Sequence record: OR911937.1
DNA: 52,757 bases
Direction: 5' to 3' (one strand)
Source: Escherichia phage vB_EcoM_SD350
Position numbers and translations under genes: made by a program. The notes under the pieces were generated by a model. That model saw only the letters and a list, made by a program, of their open reading frames with translations. It ran no database searches and was not told the DNA's origin. This document shows positions 12,586 to 20,969 of the stretch, piece by piece. Within the stretch, counting starts at the first letter, position 1. Every line of letters begins with the position of its first letter.

Positions 12586-12618
12586 AAAAGGCGAGCTGAC
12601 GAGCTCGCCTTTTTTATT
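12586..12618 (+). terminator. rho-independent terminator after the capsid gene
   Basis: GGCGAGC-loop-GCTCGCC stem followed by TTTTTTATTT. Confidence 0.7.
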
Positions 12619-12645
12619 TACACGTATAAAGTTCTGGTATATAAT
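12617..12645 (+). promoter_or_regulatory. promoter candidate (TTTACA-N17-TATAAT)
   Basis: TTTACA 12617-12622, TATAAT 12640-12645, just after the terminator. Confidence 0.4.
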
Positions 12646-12671: not shown

Positions 12672-13172
12672 ATGGCATACACACTTGTTGTGGAAGACGG
12701 TTCAATTGTTCCGGGTGCTAACTCGTATGTTAGCGCAGCAGAAGTTGATGAATTTATCACTAACGAAGGTATTCTCATTCAACCAGGAACTGACCCGTAC
12801 TACCAGGCTGCCAAAGCAGCTATCCGACTTGATAACCAGTTTAACTGGCTAGGTCGTAAGGTCAGCAAAACACAGAGCATGGCTTGGCCCCGTACTGGTC
12901 TCGGTGCATGCAATGTTGACATCGCGGAGTCTGTAATTCCGCGAGAAGTTAAGCTGGCACAGCTTTATATGATGGCCAGTGTATTGAGCTACGACGGTGA
13001 AGAAGGTGTGCGTAGCGACCAGGCTTTGCGCCGTAAGAAAGTTGGTAACCTGGAGATTGAATACTTCGACTCCAAATCAGGCGTTACCGGTGCAACTGAC
13101 CTTTGGACGTCAGACGTCAAGGTCATGCTCAAGCACCTTGTGGGTGCATCACTGAGAACGCGGAGAGTATAA
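12672..13172 (+). CDS. head-tail connector/adaptor protein candidate
   Basis: 166-aa ORF immediately after the capsid gene; positional. Confidence 0.45.
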   Translation: MAYTLVVEDGSIVPGANSYVSAAEVDEFITNEGILIQPGTDPYYQAAKAAIRLDNQFNWLGRKVSKTQSMAWPRTGLGACNVDIAESVIPREVKLAQLYMMASVLSYDGEEGVRSDQALRRKKVGNLEIEYFDSKSGVTGATDLWTSDVKVMLKHLVGASLRTRRV

Positions 13173-13660
13173 TGATTCGTATACGCCTTGAACGTCGCGA
13201 CAAACAAAAGTTCGAGTTCACCTACCGTGCCTTTAAGTCGTTTGAAGGTCAAGGCGTATCAGTAGGTGTTCATCCAGAGCACAACAGACGTATAAATCCC
13301 AGGGACCGTATAACAAACGCCGAGCTAGCAATGGTGCATGAGTACGGTCTTAACGGTCTGCCAGAACGAAGCTTTCTTCGTAGTGCTGTTGGTGGCAAGG
13401 GTAAAGGCCGACAGGCAATAAACAAAGCTTTCCGCGATAATGTACCTGCTGTTCTCAGAGGAAGCATGACTGCGCATGAGCTTAACGACAAAATAGGTCG
13501 TATGCTTGTTGACGCTGTTCACGACAGAATGGACAGTGACGTGCCACCTCCTAACACCGAGCTGACAGAAGAACGCAAACGCGGGCCAGGTACACTTAGA
13601 GAATCTATGCAGTTGTATGATTCGATAAGTTACAAAGTTGGCAGAAACTGGAGGCTATAA
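13172..13660 (+). CDS. head completion protein candidate
   Basis: ATG at 13172 overlaps the upstream stop, GGAGAG ribosome-binding site; track ORF 13103 trimmed to this start. Confidence 0.45.
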   Translation: MIRIRLERRDKQKFEFTYRAFKSFEGQGVSVGVHPEHNRRINPRDRITNAELAMVHEYGLNGLPERSFLRSAVGGKGKGRQAINKAFRDNVPAVLRGSMTAHELNDKIGRMLVDAVHDRMDSDVPPPNTELTEERKRGPGTLRESMQLYDSISYKVGRNWRL

Positions 13661-14037
13661 TGCTCAAGATAACTTCGCTAATGAAGGATAAAACCTTTGT
13701 AGCATTAACAGATGTTCTTCTCCGAAATGATTCACGCTTACCAAACGGCGACTTCGAAGACGAATATACAGCTGCAAAGTATCTGTGTAACATTCAACCT
13801 GGTGCAGCTACTAACCAGCCTAACCTGTTGACTAAAGACGATGGCGAGCATGAGTTCCCACGTATTGCGATATACTGTGGACAAGAGCTGAAGCTCGGAG
13901 ACTTCGTTATCTACGAAGACCAGCCATACCGTGTATTCCGTATCGACCCATGGAGTCGTCATGGCCACTACTACGTTACAGCAATTCTCCATAAAGGACC
14001 TCAGGGAGCTCGTTCAGAAGCTTTTAACATTACCTGA
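13660..14037 (+). CDS. hypothetical virion protein
   Basis: 125-aa ORF, start overlaps the previous stop, GGAGG ribosome-binding site. Confidence 0.45.
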   Translation: MLKITSLMKDKTFVALTDVLLRNDSRLPNGDFEDEYTAAKYLCNIQPGAATNQPNLLTKDDGEHEFPRIAIYCGQELKLGDFVIYEDQPYRVFRIDPWSRHGHYYVTAILHKGPQGARSEAFNIT

Positions 14038-14488
14038 TGGTTCATGCATTATTGGTGAAGAGTCTGGTACAGTTGATGGTACACCGTATGTTTATCTGCG
14101 TCCTGGTGATGCTTATGACTTCGGACCACCTAGAACCAGACAAGGCTCTGACGGCTTTGAGTACGTCAGCAAGCCAATGATGACGGCTGTACGTATTACA
14201 GCTGTCGGTAAGAATGCTGCTGAGCTAATGCGTAAGCTACACATAGCGCTGGGTAGCTCACCAGCTAAGCAGTTTAACCGTTTACGACATTATGCAATAA
14301 CCAAAATATCGAAGATTGATAATGTCGGTGGTGCTATTGGTGCAGGCTATGCGCAGAAGTCAATGATGACTGTTGACATTAGCTATGTGCATAAAGTTAA
14401 AATTGAGCAACCGTACATCTACAAGGTTGACATCACTTGTATGGATGACAACGGTAACAAAGCGACTGGTACAGTAGAGGAACCGTAA
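13961..14488 (+). CDS. hypothetical virion protein (start uncertain)
   Basis: ORF 13931-14488 overlaps the upstream gene by ~80-100 nt; internal ATG at 13961 is an alternative start. Confidence 0.35.
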   Translation: MATTTLQQFSIKDLRELVQKLLTLPDGSCIIGEESGTVDGTPYVYLRPGDAYDFGPPRTRQGSDGFEYVSKPMMTAVRITAVGKNAAELMRKLHIALGSSPAKQFNRLRHYAITKISKIDNVGGAIGAGYAQKSMMTVDISYVHKVKIEQPYIYKVDITCMDDNGNKATGTVEEP

Positions 14489-15111
14489 TGGCAACTGGAG
14501 TAGACCCGGAACTGCAAGCGCAGCTGGATAAGCTAACAACTGCTGTCCAGCTCATTCATGACTTCGGTATGTCAGACAACCCAAACATCCCTAACCCGGA
14601 AGGCGGTGTCATACGCACACTCGAAGGCATTAACGCTGCAATCAACGAAGCTATACCAAACTTTGAAAACGCTAACGAAGCTGCTATCCAGGCGCGTGCT
14701 GCTCGTGACGCGGCTATTGCAGCCAAAGAAGCTGCAGAAACGGCAGCTGAACAGGCCACAGTAGCTTCGACGTCAGCAATCTATGAGTACGGCAACGTTG
14801 CAAGTGCAGCTACAGTGACTATACCAGCTGCATCTAAAACAATTGTCAGCCTTACACTTAACCAGCCAAACACCGTAATTAATATCGGTGGTGTATCTGA
14901 CCCGTCTACTGTTGCGCGTCAGATTACTATTGCTATTAAGCAAGGCACTGGTTCTAACAAAGTGACTGCTTGGGATCCAAGAATAAAATGGGCCAACAAC
15001 AGGAAGCCCGTTCTGTCATTCCTTGTGGGTTACACAGATGTTGTTACGTTGCTGACCTTTGACTCAGGCGCAACTTGGATGGGTTTCTTTAACGGTGGAT
15101 GGATTAAATAA
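14488..15111 (+). CDS. hypothetical virion protein
   Basis: 207 aa, Ala-rich, start overlaps the previous stop. Confidence 0.45.
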   Translation: MATGVDPELQAQLDKLTTAVQLIHDFGMSDNPNIPNPEGGVIRTLEGINAAINEAIPNFENANEAAIQARAARDAAIAAKEAAETAAEQATVASTSAIYEYGNVASAATVTIPAASKTIVSLTLNQPNTVINIGGVSDPSTVARQITIAIKQGTGSNKVTAWDPRIKWANNRKPVLSFLVGYTDVVTLLTFDSGATWMGFFNGGWIK

Positions 15112-18068
15112 TGCACACGATGTTGCTTAAAGACGGATCAGACCATCGAGCTAATGTCGAAAGCCTTATCGAAGGTCACCACCATTTTCTAGAGCGTAAT
15201 ACTGGCAGAACTGACGATGCTACGCGTCAGCACTATATCTTCAACCCAGAAGGAGTAGTGTCGAACAACCGCCATTTTATTGCACACACCATGATGGAGT
15301 ATCAGCCTAACGGTGATGCTCCGTCTGAAAGTCAGTCGCTGCTAATACTCGGCGAAATTCACGCGTACCTTGCTACTAAGGAACAGCGGTACCTTGACAA
15401 AGCAATTGAGTACTTCAATGCTTACGTCAAGTACTATTACGAGGGGGACCCAATCCCTGATACTCCTCGTCGCTGGATCGCTAACTGGCTTTGTAATGGC
15501 AAAGAGCCTGTGTTAGCCAGCTTCCCAATCAACCCTGATTCACCAACACAAGGCGGCTATAAAAATGTGCCAGTTAAGTTTGTTAACGGCAAAGCACAAA
15601 TCCCTCATGGTTCTCCTTTCTGGGGCGAGTACCTGGATGTTGCTACTTGGGCCCACAGGGGACACATGGCTTGGCCTGCTATTAATGGCGGTGTCCGTGT
15701 TATTAAAAATAAAGTTGACTGGGACGATATTTACAACAATTATCGCATCACTACCATGCCAGCTGACCCGTGGAATCAGTTAGCCTGGATTGACTGGCCG
15801 AGGTATCTGGGCGAACCAAGCTACACTGTGGACTGGTCAGCTGCTGAACCTCCTGTACATCTCATCGAGTATATTGTTGCATGGACCAATAACAAGATTG
15901 GTGTTCTGCCTGGCAAAAACGATGAGCTATGGGGAGGCGAGATTCTTGAGACTGGACTGCCTAACTCTCGCAGAGGTGAGATTCAACTCCGTGACCACAC
16001 TGTTAACGGTGTGTATCTGCTTAACTATGCCGTTAAGCTTCCTGTTGAACACGGTGGTTATTTGCTTAAGCGAAATGAGGTATGGCACAACAGACCGGTA
16101 AACGTTCCACTGTACGGCGAGCTTCAACGCGGTAATGCTGCTGATGCTGAGTTGTGGTTCTGTGACTGCTGCTATATGCTGTGGCGAATTACTAAAGAGC
16201 AAAAGTATTACAACGCTTGGCAAGCTGTCCTGTTTACGCTGGAGGAGTATATTGATATTGATAAACAAGACCAGTTCTTCCGTCAAGACTCTCACGCGTC
16301 ATCTCCGTTTACTGATGGCATCTCTTATGATTGGTCTTATCCTGAACTGGCACAAGCTATATATTCACGTGATGAAAATGGTTATATAGTTCTACGCCAG
16401 AACCAAAAAGCTCAATCATCTCTGGAGCAACAGGCTGTATGGTTTAAGTGTAAGCCAACAGCTAAGATACGTACAGAGGTTGGTGGCAAAGATGATGCTG
16501 GTCAGAATATCAGTGTCAAGGTGGAAATGTACATGAACCGTGAAAAGGTTGACGTTGAGCAAAACATCTATCGTTTTGTCACACAGCTACCTGCTCTTGG
16601 TGCTTCACCTGCTAACTACGACATTCCGTTAAGCGATTTTGTCGCAGGTACTAAGCCAGATGGTTCTGAGTATATCTTAGCTGATATTCGTTCGTCCACT
16701 GATTACGGCAATGCCACTATTGCAGTGTCTTACCGTACTGACATACTTGACAACAGACGTGGCAACACTGTTCGTATGACAATACCGGATAGTTCGTCAG
16801 GTGCCATTATAGGCTTTTGGCTACTGGAATCTTCCCAGGCGCCTTTAAACTCGCTGACGTATACTTCTACAGGTCCGTTGTGCATCAAAGTAACTGACGC
16901 GCAAGGCTGGAGTTGGGTACGTGATTTACCTGCCGCACCAGGATGGGTAACTCAGCAGATTCGCACCTGGGAGTTCAGGCTGGCGTCATACCAGGAAAAC
17001 ACAGGTACACCACCAGCTAGCCCACAATTCGGCGAGATTAAGCAGTTCTCGTTTGTACTGCCTGATGGTGTTAATACGTCGACAAGTATTAGCTGGTACT
17101 GTGTGAATGATGTTCCGCCTCGCTATAACTGGCCAATCGGCTATACGATTAAGTATCGTCTTACTTTCTCGGCTGATAACCCGTACACAGCTAGACTTGG
17201 CGACTGTACTGTGCTGGACTATGAGAATGATAACCTTGCTTACACGCCAGGTGTTATTCCGTTCTCCAACATTTATAACCCTGATTCTAAGCAGTTCGAT
17301 GGTTGGCACGGTATACCTTACCCTGGCTATCAGTATCCGTTTGTCTTTACGCATGACGATACTGCAGCAGGTACAATCAGGCTGAACAACATGGTTAACT
17401 TTTTGTACGATTCTCAGCAATGGTACTATAAGAAGTTTGGTCAGCTAGGTCCTGGTGCATCTGCTTTTATCTGGAACCGTTGGGATAACTTTAAATACGG
17501 TGTACCTGATACGTTTACCATGTATCACTGGGGTAATGGTAGTGCATGGTCAGGTTACCAGCCTCGTGCTTATTTCTCCGCAGCACGTGGATGGTATGAG
17601 CTAGTAAACCGTGGTAAGCCAGTTCCGAGTAAGCTTATTGCTTATGTGGATAACTGGTCAAAATGGTTGCTTGACTTCATGGAAAGGTCAGGAGGTGTGT
17701 CGCCTTCTAACTTCCCACAAGAAGGTGTTGCTCTGCCAGTCCCTACAGACTTCACAGGTCACATGTGCGGACTATGGCTTGCTGGTGCAGCTATGTCAGC
17801 CCTTTGTGGGTCAACGGTATCAGGACTTGATAAGCTGATGGACATGCTTGTCAATGAGCTGGAAGACCACTATGACATAACTGGTATTCCAGGGCATGTA
17901 ATGGATGGTGGTTGGTCGCCAGCGTTACGTCTTGAAACTGGTACAGGACCTGAAAGCAACGCCATGTACTATGGTTTTTACTCTGGCGAAATATTACGAG
18001 GGTTGGGCTTATACCTGCTGTACAAAAACAAAGGGGCTAAAGCAGATATTTATGATTTAGGCCCGTAA
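15111..18068 (+). CDS. large virion-module protein of unknown function (985 aa)
   Basis: Single uninterrupted ORF, Trp/Tyr-rich, no motif I can assign; lies between connector genes and Ig-like proteins. Confidence 0.6.
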   Translation: MHTMLLKDGSDHRANVESLIEGHHHFLERNTGRTDDATRQHYIFNPEGVVSNNRHFIAHTMMEYQPNGDAPSESQSLLILGEIHAYLATKEQRYLDKAIEYFNAYVKYYYEGDPIPDTPRRWIANWLCNGKEPVLASFPINPDSPTQGGYKNVPVKFVNGKAQIPHGSPFWGEYLDVATWAHRGHMAWPAINGGVRVIKNKVDWDDIYNNYRITTMPADPWNQLAWIDWPRYLGEPSYTVDWSAAEPPVHLIEYIVAWTNNKIGVLPGKNDELWGGEILETGLPNSRRGEIQLRDHTVNGVYLLNYAVKLPVEHGGYLLKRNEVWHNRPVNVPLYGELQRGNAADAELWFCDCCYMLWRITKEQKYYNAWQAVLFTLEEYIDIDKQDQFFRQDSHASSPFTDGISYDWSYPELAQAIYSRDENGYIVLRQNQKAQSSLEQQAVWFKCKPTAKIRTEVGGKDDAGQNISVKVEMYMNREKVDVEQNIYRFVTQLPALGASPANYDIPLSDFVAGTKPDGSEYILADIRSSTDYGNATIAVSYRTDILDNRRGNTVRMTIPDSSSGAIIGFWLLESSQAPLNSLTYTSTGPLCIKVTDAQGWSWVRDLPAAPGWVTQQIRTWEFRLASYQENTGTPPASPQFGEIKQFSFVLPDGVNTSTSISWYCVNDVPPRYNWPIGYTIKYRLTFSADNPYTARLGDCTVLDYENDNLAYTPGVIPFSNIYNPDSKQFDGWHGIPYPGYQYPFVFTHDDTAAGTIRLNNMVNFLYDSQQWYYKKFGQLGPGASAFIWNRWDNFKYGVPDTFTMYHWGNGSAWSGYQPRAYFSAARGWYELVNRGKPVPSKLIAYVDNWSKWLLDFMERSGGVSPSNFPQEGVALPVPTDFTGHMCGLWLAGAAMSALCGSTVSGLDKLMDMLVNELEDHYDITGIPGHVMDGGWSPALRLETGTGPESNAMYYGFYSGEILRGLGLYLLYKNKGAKADIYDLGP

Positions 18069-18074
18069 CCACTA

Positions 18075-18113
18075 TTTACTTAACCGAGGCGCCAGCCTAT
18101 AATAAGCTGGCGC
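18075..18113 (+). promoter_or_regulatory. promoter candidate with the -10 hexamer inside a hairpin loop
   Basis: TTTACT 18075-18080, TATAAT 18098-18103; GCGCCAGC (18089-18096) pairs with GCTGGCGC (18106-18113). Confidence 0.4.
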
Positions 18114-18135
18114 ACCCAATAAGAGGATTCTCCAG

Positions 18136-18774
18136 ATGGCAAATCGTACTACAGCCAACCGTCCTGTTAAAGACGCAGACCTGCGTCAAGAGTCGGTTAC
18201 TCAGTTCCCGTTATCCAAGCCAACCAAGCTTGACGAGAACGGAAAATTCATTCCAACCCCAGTTACCGGTGTAACTGCTACGCCTAAGACTAAGTCGATT
18301 GCTGTTGGTGAGTTTACAACTCTGTCAGCAGCAGTAGCACCGGCAGACGCAGATGACGTCACCGTGTTGTGGGAAAGCAATGCGCCTGACAAAGCCACTG
18401 TTGATGGTTCAGGTCGTGTTCAGGGTATCAAAGTTGGTTCAGCAACTATTACTGCTAAATCCAAGCTTGACCCTTCCAAAACAGATACTGTAGCAATTAC
18501 GGTAACTGCTCCGCCGGTAGCCGTTACTGGTGTTACGTTAGCGCCTAAGTCGCCAAGCGTTGTAGTAGGCTCCACTGTACAGCTGACTGCAACTATACTG
18601 CCCGCTGGTGCTACTAACAAAGCTGTTACCTACGAATCAAACGATCAGGCTAAAGCTACCGTTAGTGCAACTGGTCTGGTGACCGGTAAAGCAGCTGGTG
18701 TCGTCACCATCACTGTCAAAACAGCTGATGGCAGCTTCACTGACACCGCGTCAGTAACTGTTACTGCTGAGTAA
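18136..18774 (+). CDS. Ig-like (BIG2-type) repeat protein
   Basis: 212 aa with repeated ~80-aa units (e.g. VTGVT...TxTVxA and A..D..V.W.S...A.V..GL..G); GGATTC ribosome-binding site. Confidence 0.5.
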   Translation: MANRTTANRPVKDADLRQESVTQFPLSKPTKLDENGKFIPTPVTGVTATPKTKSIAVGEFTTLSAAVAPADADDVTVLWESNAPDKATVDGSGRVQGIKVGSATITAKSKLDPSKTDTVAITVTAPPVAVTGVTLAPKSPSVVVGSTVQLTATILPAGATNKAVTYESNDQAKATVSATGLVTGKAAGVVTITVKTADGSFTDTASVTVTAE

Positions 18775-18782
18775 GGAGCTGA

Positions 18783-20915
18783 TTGATGTCGCTTCCGCTT
18801 AATGAGGTTGTCGACGTCCAGTTCAGTAAGAGCAACGGGGGTAAAGGTTTTACCCCCAATGTTCCGCTGGAAGGTATAATGCTTTCCAACTACGAGTACT
18901 CAATCGTCGCGGGTGATGACCCTGTTCAGCTAGTTGTGCGTTACATTCCAACCAACGCTACTGAGCGTGGTATGGCGTGGAAATCTAGCGACTCGGACAT
19001 TATCACTGTTGATGAGCTCGGATTTGTGAAGCCACTGGCGGAAGGTGTTGCATACGTGACTGGTACGTCTGTTGACGGCGGTTATACAGTACGAGCAAAG
19101 TTTAACATTGCTCGGGCACCTATACTTGTTGAATCTGTTACAGTGTCTCCCACAAGTGTGACGCTTGAAGAGGGCAAGACTCAACGCCTGACATACACCT
19201 ATTTACCTGCTAATGCAGACAAACCTGATTTCTACTGGATTTCAGACGATGAGTCTGTTGCTGTTGTTAACGACAGCGGGCTTGTCACTGCTATTGGAGA
19301 TGGTGAAACAACTGTAAACGTACAGTACGGTGTTGACAGCTCTATATTCGATAGCTGTACCGTAACTGTTATTCCGCCTGTTGTACACGTTACAGGAGTT
19401 GAGTTTCTTACTCAGTCACCTCTTAACGTTAATATCGGAAGCACAGCTGGTACCAGTATTCGTATATCGCCAGAAGATGCCACTGACAAAACAGTGACAT
19501 ACGAAAGCAGTGCGCCTGATGTAGCAACTGTGGATACTGACGGAAATGTTACTGGTATTATAGCTGGTAATGCAACTGTTACTGTTAAGACGAATGATGG
19601 TGATAAAACTGACACTCTTGACATTATAGTCAGGGTGCCTGCTGTAAATGTTACCGGTGTAAGTATTGACGAAGGCGATACAGCTTCCATGGAAGTTGGA
19701 GACACTCTCCAGCTGCATGCTACTGTGACTCCTGAAAATGCTACTGACCCGTCTGTTGTATGGAGTGCTCCTGTATCAGAAGTTGCGTCTGTGACTGAAG
19801 CTGGTTTGGTAACCGCTAACGCTGCAGGCTTAATCGATGTTACTGTTATCACTAACGACGGGAACTTTACTGACAGAATCGAGGTTAAAGTTACAGACCC
19901 CAGCATCGCAGTTACGGATGTTGCATGGGCTCCTGACTCTCCGACTAAAGTAAGCGCTGGCCATCAGGTGCAGACTAAAATTGTTATAACACCTGACAAC
20001 GCAACTAACAAAAAAGTTAGCTACAATAGTTCAAACCCAGACGCTGTTACTGTTGACACTAACGGAGTTATATACGGTCAATCTCCTGGAACTTCGACTA
20101 TTACAGTTACAACAGAAGACGGTGGACTTGAGGCTTCATTTGTAGCGACTTGCACGGAGGTTGCTGTTATTACACCAGATGGTCTTGGTGGTATTCCAAT
20201 TGGCGGCACTCAGCAGTTCACTTACACTGTTAACCAGCCTGATGCTGATCTGACTAACATTCGTTATGAATCTGCTAACCCAGATATTGCAACTGTTGAT
20301 TCGTCTGGTGTTGTAACTGGTGTTGCTAGTGGCGGATGTAACATCTGGATTTATGCAACTAGTAATGGCGCTGACATTAGCGCAGCTACTTGGGCACAAA
20401 TTTCTGAGAAGGTACAGGTATACCCTCAGTATGCCGAATGGCTTGTGGGTAACACCAAACAGCTTGATGTTGAGATTTATCCGTCGGACTCTAAGAGCGT
20501 TACCGTTACTTATGAATCGTCAAATGACGCTATCATTAGTATAGATGCAAATGGCTTGATGACTGCTAAGTCTGAAGGTTCAGCAACTATTACTGCTAAC
20601 GTTGTGATGAACGGTGTTGCTGCTTCTGGTACAACATCTCCTTACGTGTCTGAGCTTTCTGTTACTACTGACTCGTTGCCTGCACTTACTGTTGGTAACA
20701 CGCAACAGCTTGTTGTAACTGTTAGACCTGAATACGCTAAGACCGACCCAGGCTATAACGTTCAGTATACAACTACAGACGATACTGTCGCTACTGTAAG
20801 TAATACTGGTGTTATTACCGGCGTTGGTAGCGGTGGATGTCGTATTGGTGCCACAGTAACTGTGAGAAATGCTACAGCGTCGGACAGCTCTTATCAGTCC
20901 GTCGATGCAGCATAA
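18783..20915 (+). CDS. Ig-like multi-repeat protein (710 aa)
   Basis: Many tandem repeats of the same ~80-aa type (..VTGV.., A.D..V.W.S.., G..TVTV..DG); candidate decoration or fibre protein. Confidence 0.5.
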   Translation: MMSLPLNEVVDVQFSKSNGGKGFTPNVPLEGIMLSNYEYSIVAGDDPVQLVVRYIPTNATERGMAWKSSDSDIITVDELGFVKPLAEGVAYVTGTSVDGGYTVRAKFNIARAPILVESVTVSPTSVTLEEGKTQRLTYTYLPANADKPDFYWISDDESVAVVNDSGLVTAIGDGETTVNVQYGVDSSIFDSCTVTVIPPVVHVTGVEFLTQSPLNVNIGSTAGTSIRISPEDATDKTVTYESSAPDVATVDTDGNVTGIIAGNATVTVKTNDGDKTDTLDIIVRVPAVNVTGVSIDEGDTASMEVGDTLQLHATVTPENATDPSVVWSAPVSEVASVTEAGLVTANAAGLIDVTVITNDGNFTDRIEVKVTDPSIAVTDVAWAPDSPTKVSAGHQVQTKIVITPDNATNKKVSYNSSNPDAVTVDTNGVIYGQSPGTSTITVTTEDGGLEASFVATCTEVAVITPDGLGGIPIGGTQQFTYTVNQPDADLTNIRYESANPDIATVDSSGVVTGVASGGCNIWIYATSNGADISAATWAQISEKVQVYPQYAEWLVGNTKQLDVEIYPSDSKSVTVTYESSNDAIISIDANGLMTAKSEGSATITANVVMNGVAASGTTSPYVSELSVTTDSLPALTVGNTQQLVVTVRPEYAKTDPGYNVQYTTTDDTVATVSNTGVITGVGSGGCRIGATVTVRNATASDSSYQSVDAA

Positions 20916-20940: not shown

Positions 20941-20969
20941 TTTACTTGGTTAAACTTACTGAGTATAAT
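20941..20969 (+). promoter_or_regulatory. promoter candidate upstream of the tail module
   Basis: TTTACT 20941-20946, 17-nt spacer, TATAAT 20964-20969. Confidence 0.4.

Follow-up and report, generated by a model that had tools for sequence, protein, structure and literature searches.

A phage tail protein family with a predicted split GH8-like barrel and a paired adaptor gene

Between the neck genes and two immunoglobulin-like (Ig) repeat genes of Escherichia phage vB_EcoM_SD350 (record OR911937.1; 52,757 nucleotides, the whole stretch being referred to below as the window) lies an open reading frame (ORF) for a protein of 985 amino acids (aa), which raises the question of what a protein of this size does at such a place. 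The analysis presented here suggests that it is a tail-mounted carbohydrate-active protein, with an (α/α)6 barrel resembling that of glycoside hydrolase family 8 (GH8) and an accompanying adaptor, that probably acts as a hydrolytic side appendage; we put the probability of this reading at roughly 0.6. The protein is one member of an already recognised and widespread family of predicted glycosidases, and what is new in the present analysis is the confident assignment of a split-barrel fold, a set of candidate catalytic residues and the invariant pairing with an adaptor gene.

The gene and its coupled partner

The original prediction, made from the nucleotide sequence of the window, had placed the ORF at 15111–18068, and these coordinates are exact: on the + strand, an ATG lies at 15111 and the stop codon at 18066–18068, with no other long ORF there. 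Its description as a single ORF had to be given up, as the gene is the second of a coupled pair:

14488–15111, + strand: 207-aa (21.7 kDa) fibre-like adaptor gene, directly upstream of the 985-aa gene
15111–18068, + strand: 985-aa gene, phi92 gp141-like tail protein (PHROG 2871), from ORF and homology

The ATG of the larger gene overlaps the stop codon of the smaller (TAATG) and M1 is nearly invariant in the homologues of the 985-aa protein; the start at 15111 is therefore sound and the two genes are translationally coupled. The protein has a calculated mass of 111.7 kDa and an isoelectric point of 5.35. Its aromatic residues (W 3.65%, Y 6.40%, F 3.55%) can be set against the pooled content of 17 neighbouring structural ORFs (W 1.46%, Y 3.08%, F 2.94%), giving a Trp/Tyr content about twice that of the neighbours. 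The richness in these residues noted earlier is thus borne out, all four motifs quoted for it being present (at residues 274, 349, 771 and 806), and the protein contains no P-loop, as had also been stated.

A widespread family of virion proteins

PHROG 2871 ("tail protein") matches residues 3–980 of the 985-aa protein with E = 0, and by this homology the protein is a member of the phi92 gp141 / rV5 gp42 / S144 gp17 family. Neither NCBIfam nor, by sequence, the PDB gave a match. The DNA of the gene is 97–99% identical to that of Rosemountvirus genomes (Salmonella phages BP63 and PA13076; E. coli phage swi3), which are myoviruses of ~52 kb; the window itself represents a BP63-like myovirus of this genus, and the gene corresponds to BP63 gp29, annotated there as "tail protein".

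A search of 5.8 billion proteins returned 310 homologues, the best 120 of which show 44–99% identity, in nearly every case along almost the entire query (coverage is 66–80% for a few longer variants), and include chromosomal copies, probably prophage, from Pseudomonas, Acinetobacter, Brenneria and Gluconobacter. Among 1.84 billion cluster representatives, a profile search found only 374 at E up to 1e-3, and tblastn located the family in 532 GenBank phage records (520 near full length). Identity to the 985-aa protein by lineage is as follows:

Rosemountvirus / Loughboroughvirus: 79–99%
Erwinia Ea21-4-like phages: 45–48%
Seoulvirus jumbo phages: 47%
Phapecoctavirus / Justusliebigvirus (phi92 gp141): 42%, over 96% of the length
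Aeromonas Atoyac ("glycosidase superfamily protein"): 42%
Vibrio phages: about 30%
Vequintavirus (rV5 gp42): 29%

S144 gp17 (ORF17), which is 82% identical to the 985-aa protein and whose annotation cites phi92 gp141, is the member whose presence in the virion is established by ESI-MS/MS (tandem mass spectrometry after electrospray ionisation): the 111-kDa protein was detected in purified virions with 25 peptides and 33% coverage, and its partner protein gp16 was likewise detected (PMC7432712). The S144 authors reported an HHpred hint of hydrolase activity in gp17 and a model that resembled neither a spike nor a fibre (PMC7432712). A review (PMC5380687) lists phi92 gp141 with a predicted glycosidase function, following Schwarzer et al. 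2012.

The host labels of some of these records look wrong. PP583539 ("Listeria phage 220426122051") carries DNA 97% identical to the 985-aa gene, and many "Campylobacter phage" records (MG065650, MG065661, MG065653, MG065690) carry rV5- or phAPEC8-type copies. In a Gluconobacter kondonii prophage, a gene for a GGDEF-domain protein (13305–14459 of the examined stretch) lies two genes downstream of the family member, in an apparent tail/lysis region.

A barrel in three pieces

An AlphaFold2 model of the 985-aa protein, built from a 50-sequence alignment, is confident (mean predicted local distance difference test, pLDDT, 88.1; predicted template modelling score, pTM, 0.83). It has long helices at residues 13–29, 72–109, 344–381 and 752–974 and β-rich regions at 127–326 and 404–702. 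In this model the barrel consists of three separated segments (~1–126, 329–402 and 733–985) split by two inserted β domains:

15111–15488, + strand: toroid segment 1, aa 1–126, helices α1–α3
15489–16094, + strand: insert 1, aa 127–328, β-rich domain; ~200–280 is the most variable, gap-rich part of the family
16095–16316, + strand: toroid segment 2, aa 329–402, helices α4–α5
16317–17306, + strand: insert 2, aa 403–732, β-sandwich domains, partly CBM11-like, holding D596 (16896–16898)
17307–18065, + strand: toroid segment 3, aa 733–985, helices α6–α12, including WNRWDNFKYGVPD (17472–17510) with D792, plus E960

Together the predicted segments form a barrel of six helical hairpins (~12 helices), as in the six-hairpin glycosidase superfamily. 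The barrel segments are the most conserved parts of the protein and the inserts the least. The fold search gave the following matches, each with its score:

3ren, GH8-type (324/332 residues, 2.9 Å): 30.9
GH105: 27.4
GH76: 26.3
P. putida GH8 endoglucanase (14% identity): 26.3
CelA: 24.6
GH48: 24.5
Komagataeibacter endoglucanase: 22.9

Foldseek adds GH48 cellulases. It also matches part of insert 2 to CBM11 (probability 1.0; template modelling score to target 0.51–0.57), but at 13–15% identity and without a Pfam match. Structure prediction and fold search, which the original prediction had named as its check, thus yielded an α/α toroid with a GH8-type protein as the best match. A classical tailspike depolymerase, with its trimeric parallel β-helix, was considered and rejected: the model is an α/α barrel with β-sandwiches, and no β-helix is found among the top fold matches. 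A lower structural match, the tail protein VP4 of the archaeal spindle virus SSV19 (PDB 7xdi_F), has no sequence relation to the 985-aa protein and belongs to another virus realm, with hosts from another domain.

Candidate active site

Conservation was scored over 35 family members, whose identity goes as low as 19%. Q75 and D596 are the same in all of them (35/35 for D596), and E73, D345, R819, W788 and Q769, among others, are conserved in at least 90% of the members. Some of these residues fall in two motifs, identified by conservation and hhalign:

15321–15338, + strand: PSESQS (T[TS]EGQ[SA] in most of the family), holding E73, the candidate general acid, and Q75
16134–16157, + strand: NAADAELW (D345, E347, W349) at the N-terminus of helix α4; A-x-D-x-E-x-W in the family

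From composition, the pattern [ST]EGQ should turn up 0.02 times per protein, yet 46 of 50 members contain it exactly once; the Rosemount- and Loughborough-type proteins have SESQ, in contrast to the [ST]EGQ of most members. BcsZ and nine other GH8 sequences that we collected contain [ST]EGQ and SASDGDVW-like motifs as well. In BcsZ, E55 is the catalytic acid and D243 the catalytic base, and the "SASDGDVW" region corresponds to the PROSITE GH8 signature; in the PDB structure 3qxq position 55 is Q, and in 7f82 the position aligned with D243 is A.

When a profile of the spliced toroid (84 sequences) was aligned by hhalign with a 10-sequence GH8 profile, E73 was placed on BcsZ E55 ("TSEGQ") and D345/E347 on D116/D118 ("SASDGDVW"), the register being kept over ~300 columns, at P 0.083, which is not significant. 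With a thin BcsZ profile, no meaningful hhalign alignment to the spliced toroid was obtained, and neither the full protein nor the spliced toroid had a significant match to the GH8 profiles (Pfam PF01270 / CAZy GH8). GH8 membership is not claimed, since the hhalign P value is not significant; there is a moderate probability that the protein works like a GH8-type hydrolase without being filed in that family. The position of the GH8a base (BcsZ D243, at the N-terminus of helix α8) aligns with "GYQPRAYFSA", where there is no acid, and from conservation D596, D792 and E960 are candidate catalytic bases. Compared with GH8 (clan GH-M: BcsZ, CelA, CPF_2247), the 985-aa protein therefore lacks both detectable profile membership and an acid at the GH8a base position, and its barrel is interrupted by two β insertions of about 200 and 330 aa; in addition, GH8 enzymes are periplasmic or secreted, whereas the family described here is virion-borne.

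The adaptor and its putative docking domain

The 207-aa protein is composed of a lineage-specific N-terminal anchor, a long Ala-rich coiled-coil-like helix (59–97) and a C-terminal β-sandwich domain (CTD, ~100–207). Its last 110 residues recur, conserved at E 1e-16 to 1e-23, as the C-terminus of the ORF that immediately precedes the large gene in four further contexts, namely a P2/HP1-like Pseudomonas prophage, a siphovirus-like Gluconobacter prophage, rV5 (gp43) and a phi92-like phage (gp140). The adaptor N-termini are unrelated between contexts, that of rV5 gp43 matching Pfam Tail_spike_N, and only 23 clusters contain the 207-aa type in full length. Eighty IMG/VR loci were examined, three of them without an upstream flank. 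A CTD-bearing ORF (151–568 aa) ends within 30 nt of the start of the large gene in all loci with usable upstream sequence and an unfused large gene (67/67), while 10 of the 80 loci have no CTD ORF and instead have a P2 gpI (Tail_P2_I) baseplate domain fused to the N-terminus of the large protein. Other fusions are C-terminal and bring in a Gp77 fibre–tail adaptor domain, N4 gp65-like sheath domains or Big_2. These arrangements are read most simply if the CTD is the dock for the enzyme, with the variable N-terminus fastening the pair to whichever tail bears it, usually at the baseplate rim.

The relatives named above fit the same scheme, phi92 gp141, rV5 gp42 and S144 gp17 all being full-length homologues preceded by the same CTD-adaptor gene (gp140, gp43 and gp16, respectively). 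Adaptor modules are also known from branched tailspike systems (CBA120 TSP2/TSP4, G7C gp66–gp63.1), in which the enzymes are trimeric β-helix or SGNH proteins; the system described here differs in its six-hairpin barrel enzyme and in a distinct, conserved 110-aa β-sandwich docking domain, whose docking role we infer from the genes. In one lineage of IMG/VR loci with ~565-aa adaptor ORFs, two CTD copies lie ~200 residues apart, which may mean docking for two cargo proteins. A "diguanylate cyclase (GGDEF/EAL)" label carried by the 207-aa adaptor in MT768059, OM313460 and MN158218 looks like a propagated misannotation, because no family search supports GGDEF/EAL.

In the window, the genes run in the order terminase, portal, scaffold, major capsid protein, Ad1, Neck1, head protein, tail terminator, 207-aa gene and 985-aa gene, and continue with two Big_2 Ig-repeat proteins, sheath, tube, chaperone, tape measure, baseplate and a Mu gpS-like tail fibre with two chaperones. 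This local order locates the pair at the neck/tail boundary, not in the head/connector module to which the original prediction had assigned the 985-aa ORF. The position then given, between connector genes and Ig-like proteins, is correct for the window (after the neck genes and before two Big_2 proteins), but homologues elsewhere lie in baseplate or tail-fibre modules. In phi92 and rV5 the cassette directly follows the baseplate hub, spike and neighbours within a large multi-fibre locus, whereas in the window and S144 it has the tail terminator on one side and the Ig-repeat and sheath genes on the other.

Proposed function and alternatives

The fold, the family, the pairing of the genes and the presence of a close relative in virions are supported by the present analysis or by published work, whereas the attachment geometry, catalysis, catalytic residues and substrate enter the following model as conditional steps. 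Coupled translation would produce the 985-aa protein together with its 207-aa partner, a predicted short fibre in which a phage-specific anchor at the N-terminus is followed by a coiled-coil stalk and, at the C-terminus, a conserved knob. The knob would keep the 985-aa protein attached to the tail, the baseplate periphery being the likeliest place. At adsorption, the barrel cleft would bind a host surface or matrix polysaccharide and probably cleave it by acid/base hydrolysis, with E73 as the putative proton donor and D345 helping to hold the sugar. The glycan layer would thereby be cleared or tracked along, so that the Mu-type tail fibre could reach its receptor.

Several points weigh against a tail-mounted hydrolase. 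Pfam gives no match to the full protein, the inserts or the spliced toroid at E up to 10, and a profile search of the PDB gives only a faint match to a GH76 helix hairpin (E 0.027). The hhalign correspondence with BcsZ is not significant, the position of the GH8a base holds no acid, and residue 74 of the window's protein is S, against G in most members. Epimerases, isomerases and terpene cyclases use the six-hairpin fold as well. The contact between adaptor and enzyme is deduced from gene linkage only, and the 985-aa gene lies in the neck operon. The 2026 cryo-electron microscopy study of phi92 left fibre II unassigned and considered gp140 a fibre-like candidate, and gp141 is nowhere mentioned in it or placed (PMC13450770). 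Our literature search found no biochemical or structural characterisation and no measured enzymatic activity for any family member; it likewise found nothing relevant on characterised six-hairpin phage tail enzymes.

Part of this evidence would suit a non-catalytic glycan-binding or purely structural tail component, that is, a lectin-like adhesin or a fibre scaffold that cleaves no bond. Such a protein needs neither a significant sequence match to a GH family nor an acid at the GH8a base position, and the additional C-terminal modules of some members (Gp77 adaptor, N4 gp65-like sheath, Big_2) suit a scaffold or hub. We nevertheless regard this alternative as unlikely, as the best-conserved polar residues lie exactly at the GH8 acid and signature positions and conservation is higher in the barrel than in the surface inserts, as one would expect if the protein is an enzyme. 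A receptor-binding tail fibre or tailspike that determines host range is a very poor candidate. Several GenBank records do say "tail fiber protein", and the copies of the Rosemountvirus phages SPLA2 and SPLA11 are 96.9% identical where other structural proteins reach 98–99%, the 31 changes being clustered in inserts, including 200–249. However, full-length identity of 42–52% across phages of Salmonella, Pseudomonas, Acinetobacter, Gluconobacter, Erwinia and Aeromonas is unlike that of receptor-binding tips, the fold is neither a trimeric β-helix nor a fibre, and in this genus a Mu gpS-like fibre, with chaperones, is encoded separately (PMC7432712).

The location of the gene after the neck genes would by itself suggest a neck or collar appendage, or a capsid decoration near the head–tail joint, but every other lineage examined has the cassette with baseplate or distal-tail genes, or a gpI baseplate fusion, and we consider this very unlikely. 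The high conservation across hosts could also be explained by a universally conserved substrate, as for an ejection protein or a peptidoglycan-degrading penetration enzyme. That idea is barely credible: no characterised peptidoglycan hydrolase is found among the top fold matches (the one carrying the label "family 73", 4mu9_B, being a putative six-hairpin glycosylhydrolase that is itself uncharacterised), the gene keeps company with peripheral components, namely adaptors and fibres, rather than with tape measure or spike, and the phage encodes a separate endolysin. From the functions originally proposed, then, the carbohydrate-active one is retained, together with the α/α toroid seen in the model and the virion presence of the S144 relative, and the ejection and decoration options are rated low.

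Which glycan?

For the tail-mounted carbohydrate-active protein favoured here, conservation this high across different hosts points to a widely shared glycan as the likely target rather than O-antigens or capsules. In the study of the BASEL collection, the lateral tail-fibre locus of rV5-like phages was found to be mostly conserved and considered to target probably conserved host glycans (PMC8594841). A more specific lead comes from TraDIS (transposon-directed sequencing of insertion sites), by which cellulose-synthesis genes (yhjL/N/Q/R/S/U) were identified as susceptibility genes for SPLA2, SPLA11 being dependent on lipopolysaccharide (PMC10949491). This cellulose lead is in keeping with the CBM11-like insert and with the structural resemblance to GH8 endoglucanases. 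The comparison of SPLA2 with SPLA11 neither supports nor rejects it, because the two copies of the 985-aa protein are 96.9% identical and the tail fibres and Ig proteins differ slightly too. Taken to its furthest point, the cassette would be a portable module of CTD adaptor and GH8-like barrel that spread because it acts on a widely shared β-linked exopolysaccharide, with bcs-type (phosphoethanolamine-)cellulose as the best candidate, a proposal that we offer as speculation and judge distinctly unlikely as it stands.

An identity with the N4 gp64-like tail fibre described as a "poly-GlcNAc deacetylase" (BASEL, PMC8594841), suggested by the BASEL remark on a conserved fibre of this kind close to the same position in rV5, was considered and rejected: the hidden Markov model of the family does not match N4 gp64, and gp64 matches the phi92 gp142 homologue instead (tblastn E 9e-31). 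This homologue, gp104 of phage PD06 (13936–14694 of the examined stretch), carries the N4 gp64-like domain and is encoded immediately downstream of the gp141 homologue, from which it follows that phi92-like phages string several glycan-active modules after the adaptor. No N4 gp64 match was found in the examined stretch of rV5.

Transcription and neighbouring genes

Three near-identical promoter-like sites (ATTTAC[AT]-N17-TATAAT), each with an AGAGG Shine-Dalgarno sequence ~16 nt downstream, surround the genes discussed here:

12617–12645, + strand: promoter-like site TTTACA-N17-TATAAT ahead of Ad1; consensus match only, with a promoter annotated at the equivalent place in BP63
18075–18103, + strand: a second site of this type, immediately following the 985-aa gene and ahead of the first Ig-repeat gene, where the next unit (the Ig-repeat proteins) would start; consensus match only
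20941–20969, + strand: promoter-like site of the same type ahead of the sheath gene; consensus match only

Since the sites lie before Ad1, after the 985-aa gene and before the sheath gene, they suggest that the 985-aa gene may be the last gene of a transcription unit starting with Ad1. A strong terminator-like hairpin (12586–12613) is located just before the site at 12617–12645, and a GC-rich hairpin at ~18090–18115 has the -10 element of the site at 18075–18103 in its loop.

Ad1 (12672–13172; PHROG 477) also matches Pfam DnaT_2, "putative DnaT-like ssDNA binding protein" (E 1.7e-44), so that the names given by the two libraries differ. The Big_2 Ig-repeat genes that follow the 985-aa gene are at 18136–18774 (212 aa) and 18783–20915 (710 aa, 8 repeats); the repeat number of the larger protein differs among close relatives (709 aa in SPLA2, 622 aa in SPLA11, 624 aa in S144). 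Within the window there are no paralogues of the 985-aa or the 207-aa gene, and no N-terminal anchor is shared with other tail genes.

Implications

Few large tail proteins of Gram-negative phages are as widespread and conserved as this family, its range including rV5-like, phi92-like, phAPEC8-like, Seoulvirus jumbo, Erwinia Ea21-4-like and Rosemountvirus phages as well as prophages. If the cassette is a portable module, it would serve phages and prophages of many Proteobacteria with contractile and non-contractile tails, and the podophage-type domain fusions hint at short-tailed phages too. If the cellulose reading is true, these virions would carry a cellulase-like enzyme, which would explain the dependence of SPLA2 on cellulose genes (PMC10949491). 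The identity of the substrate would reveal the role of this part of the adsorption apparatus and could yield a broadly active enzyme, other than a β-helix, for use against biofilm or matrix. The pairing of adaptor and enzyme provides a testable rule for the way in which accessory enzymes are mounted on very different tails.

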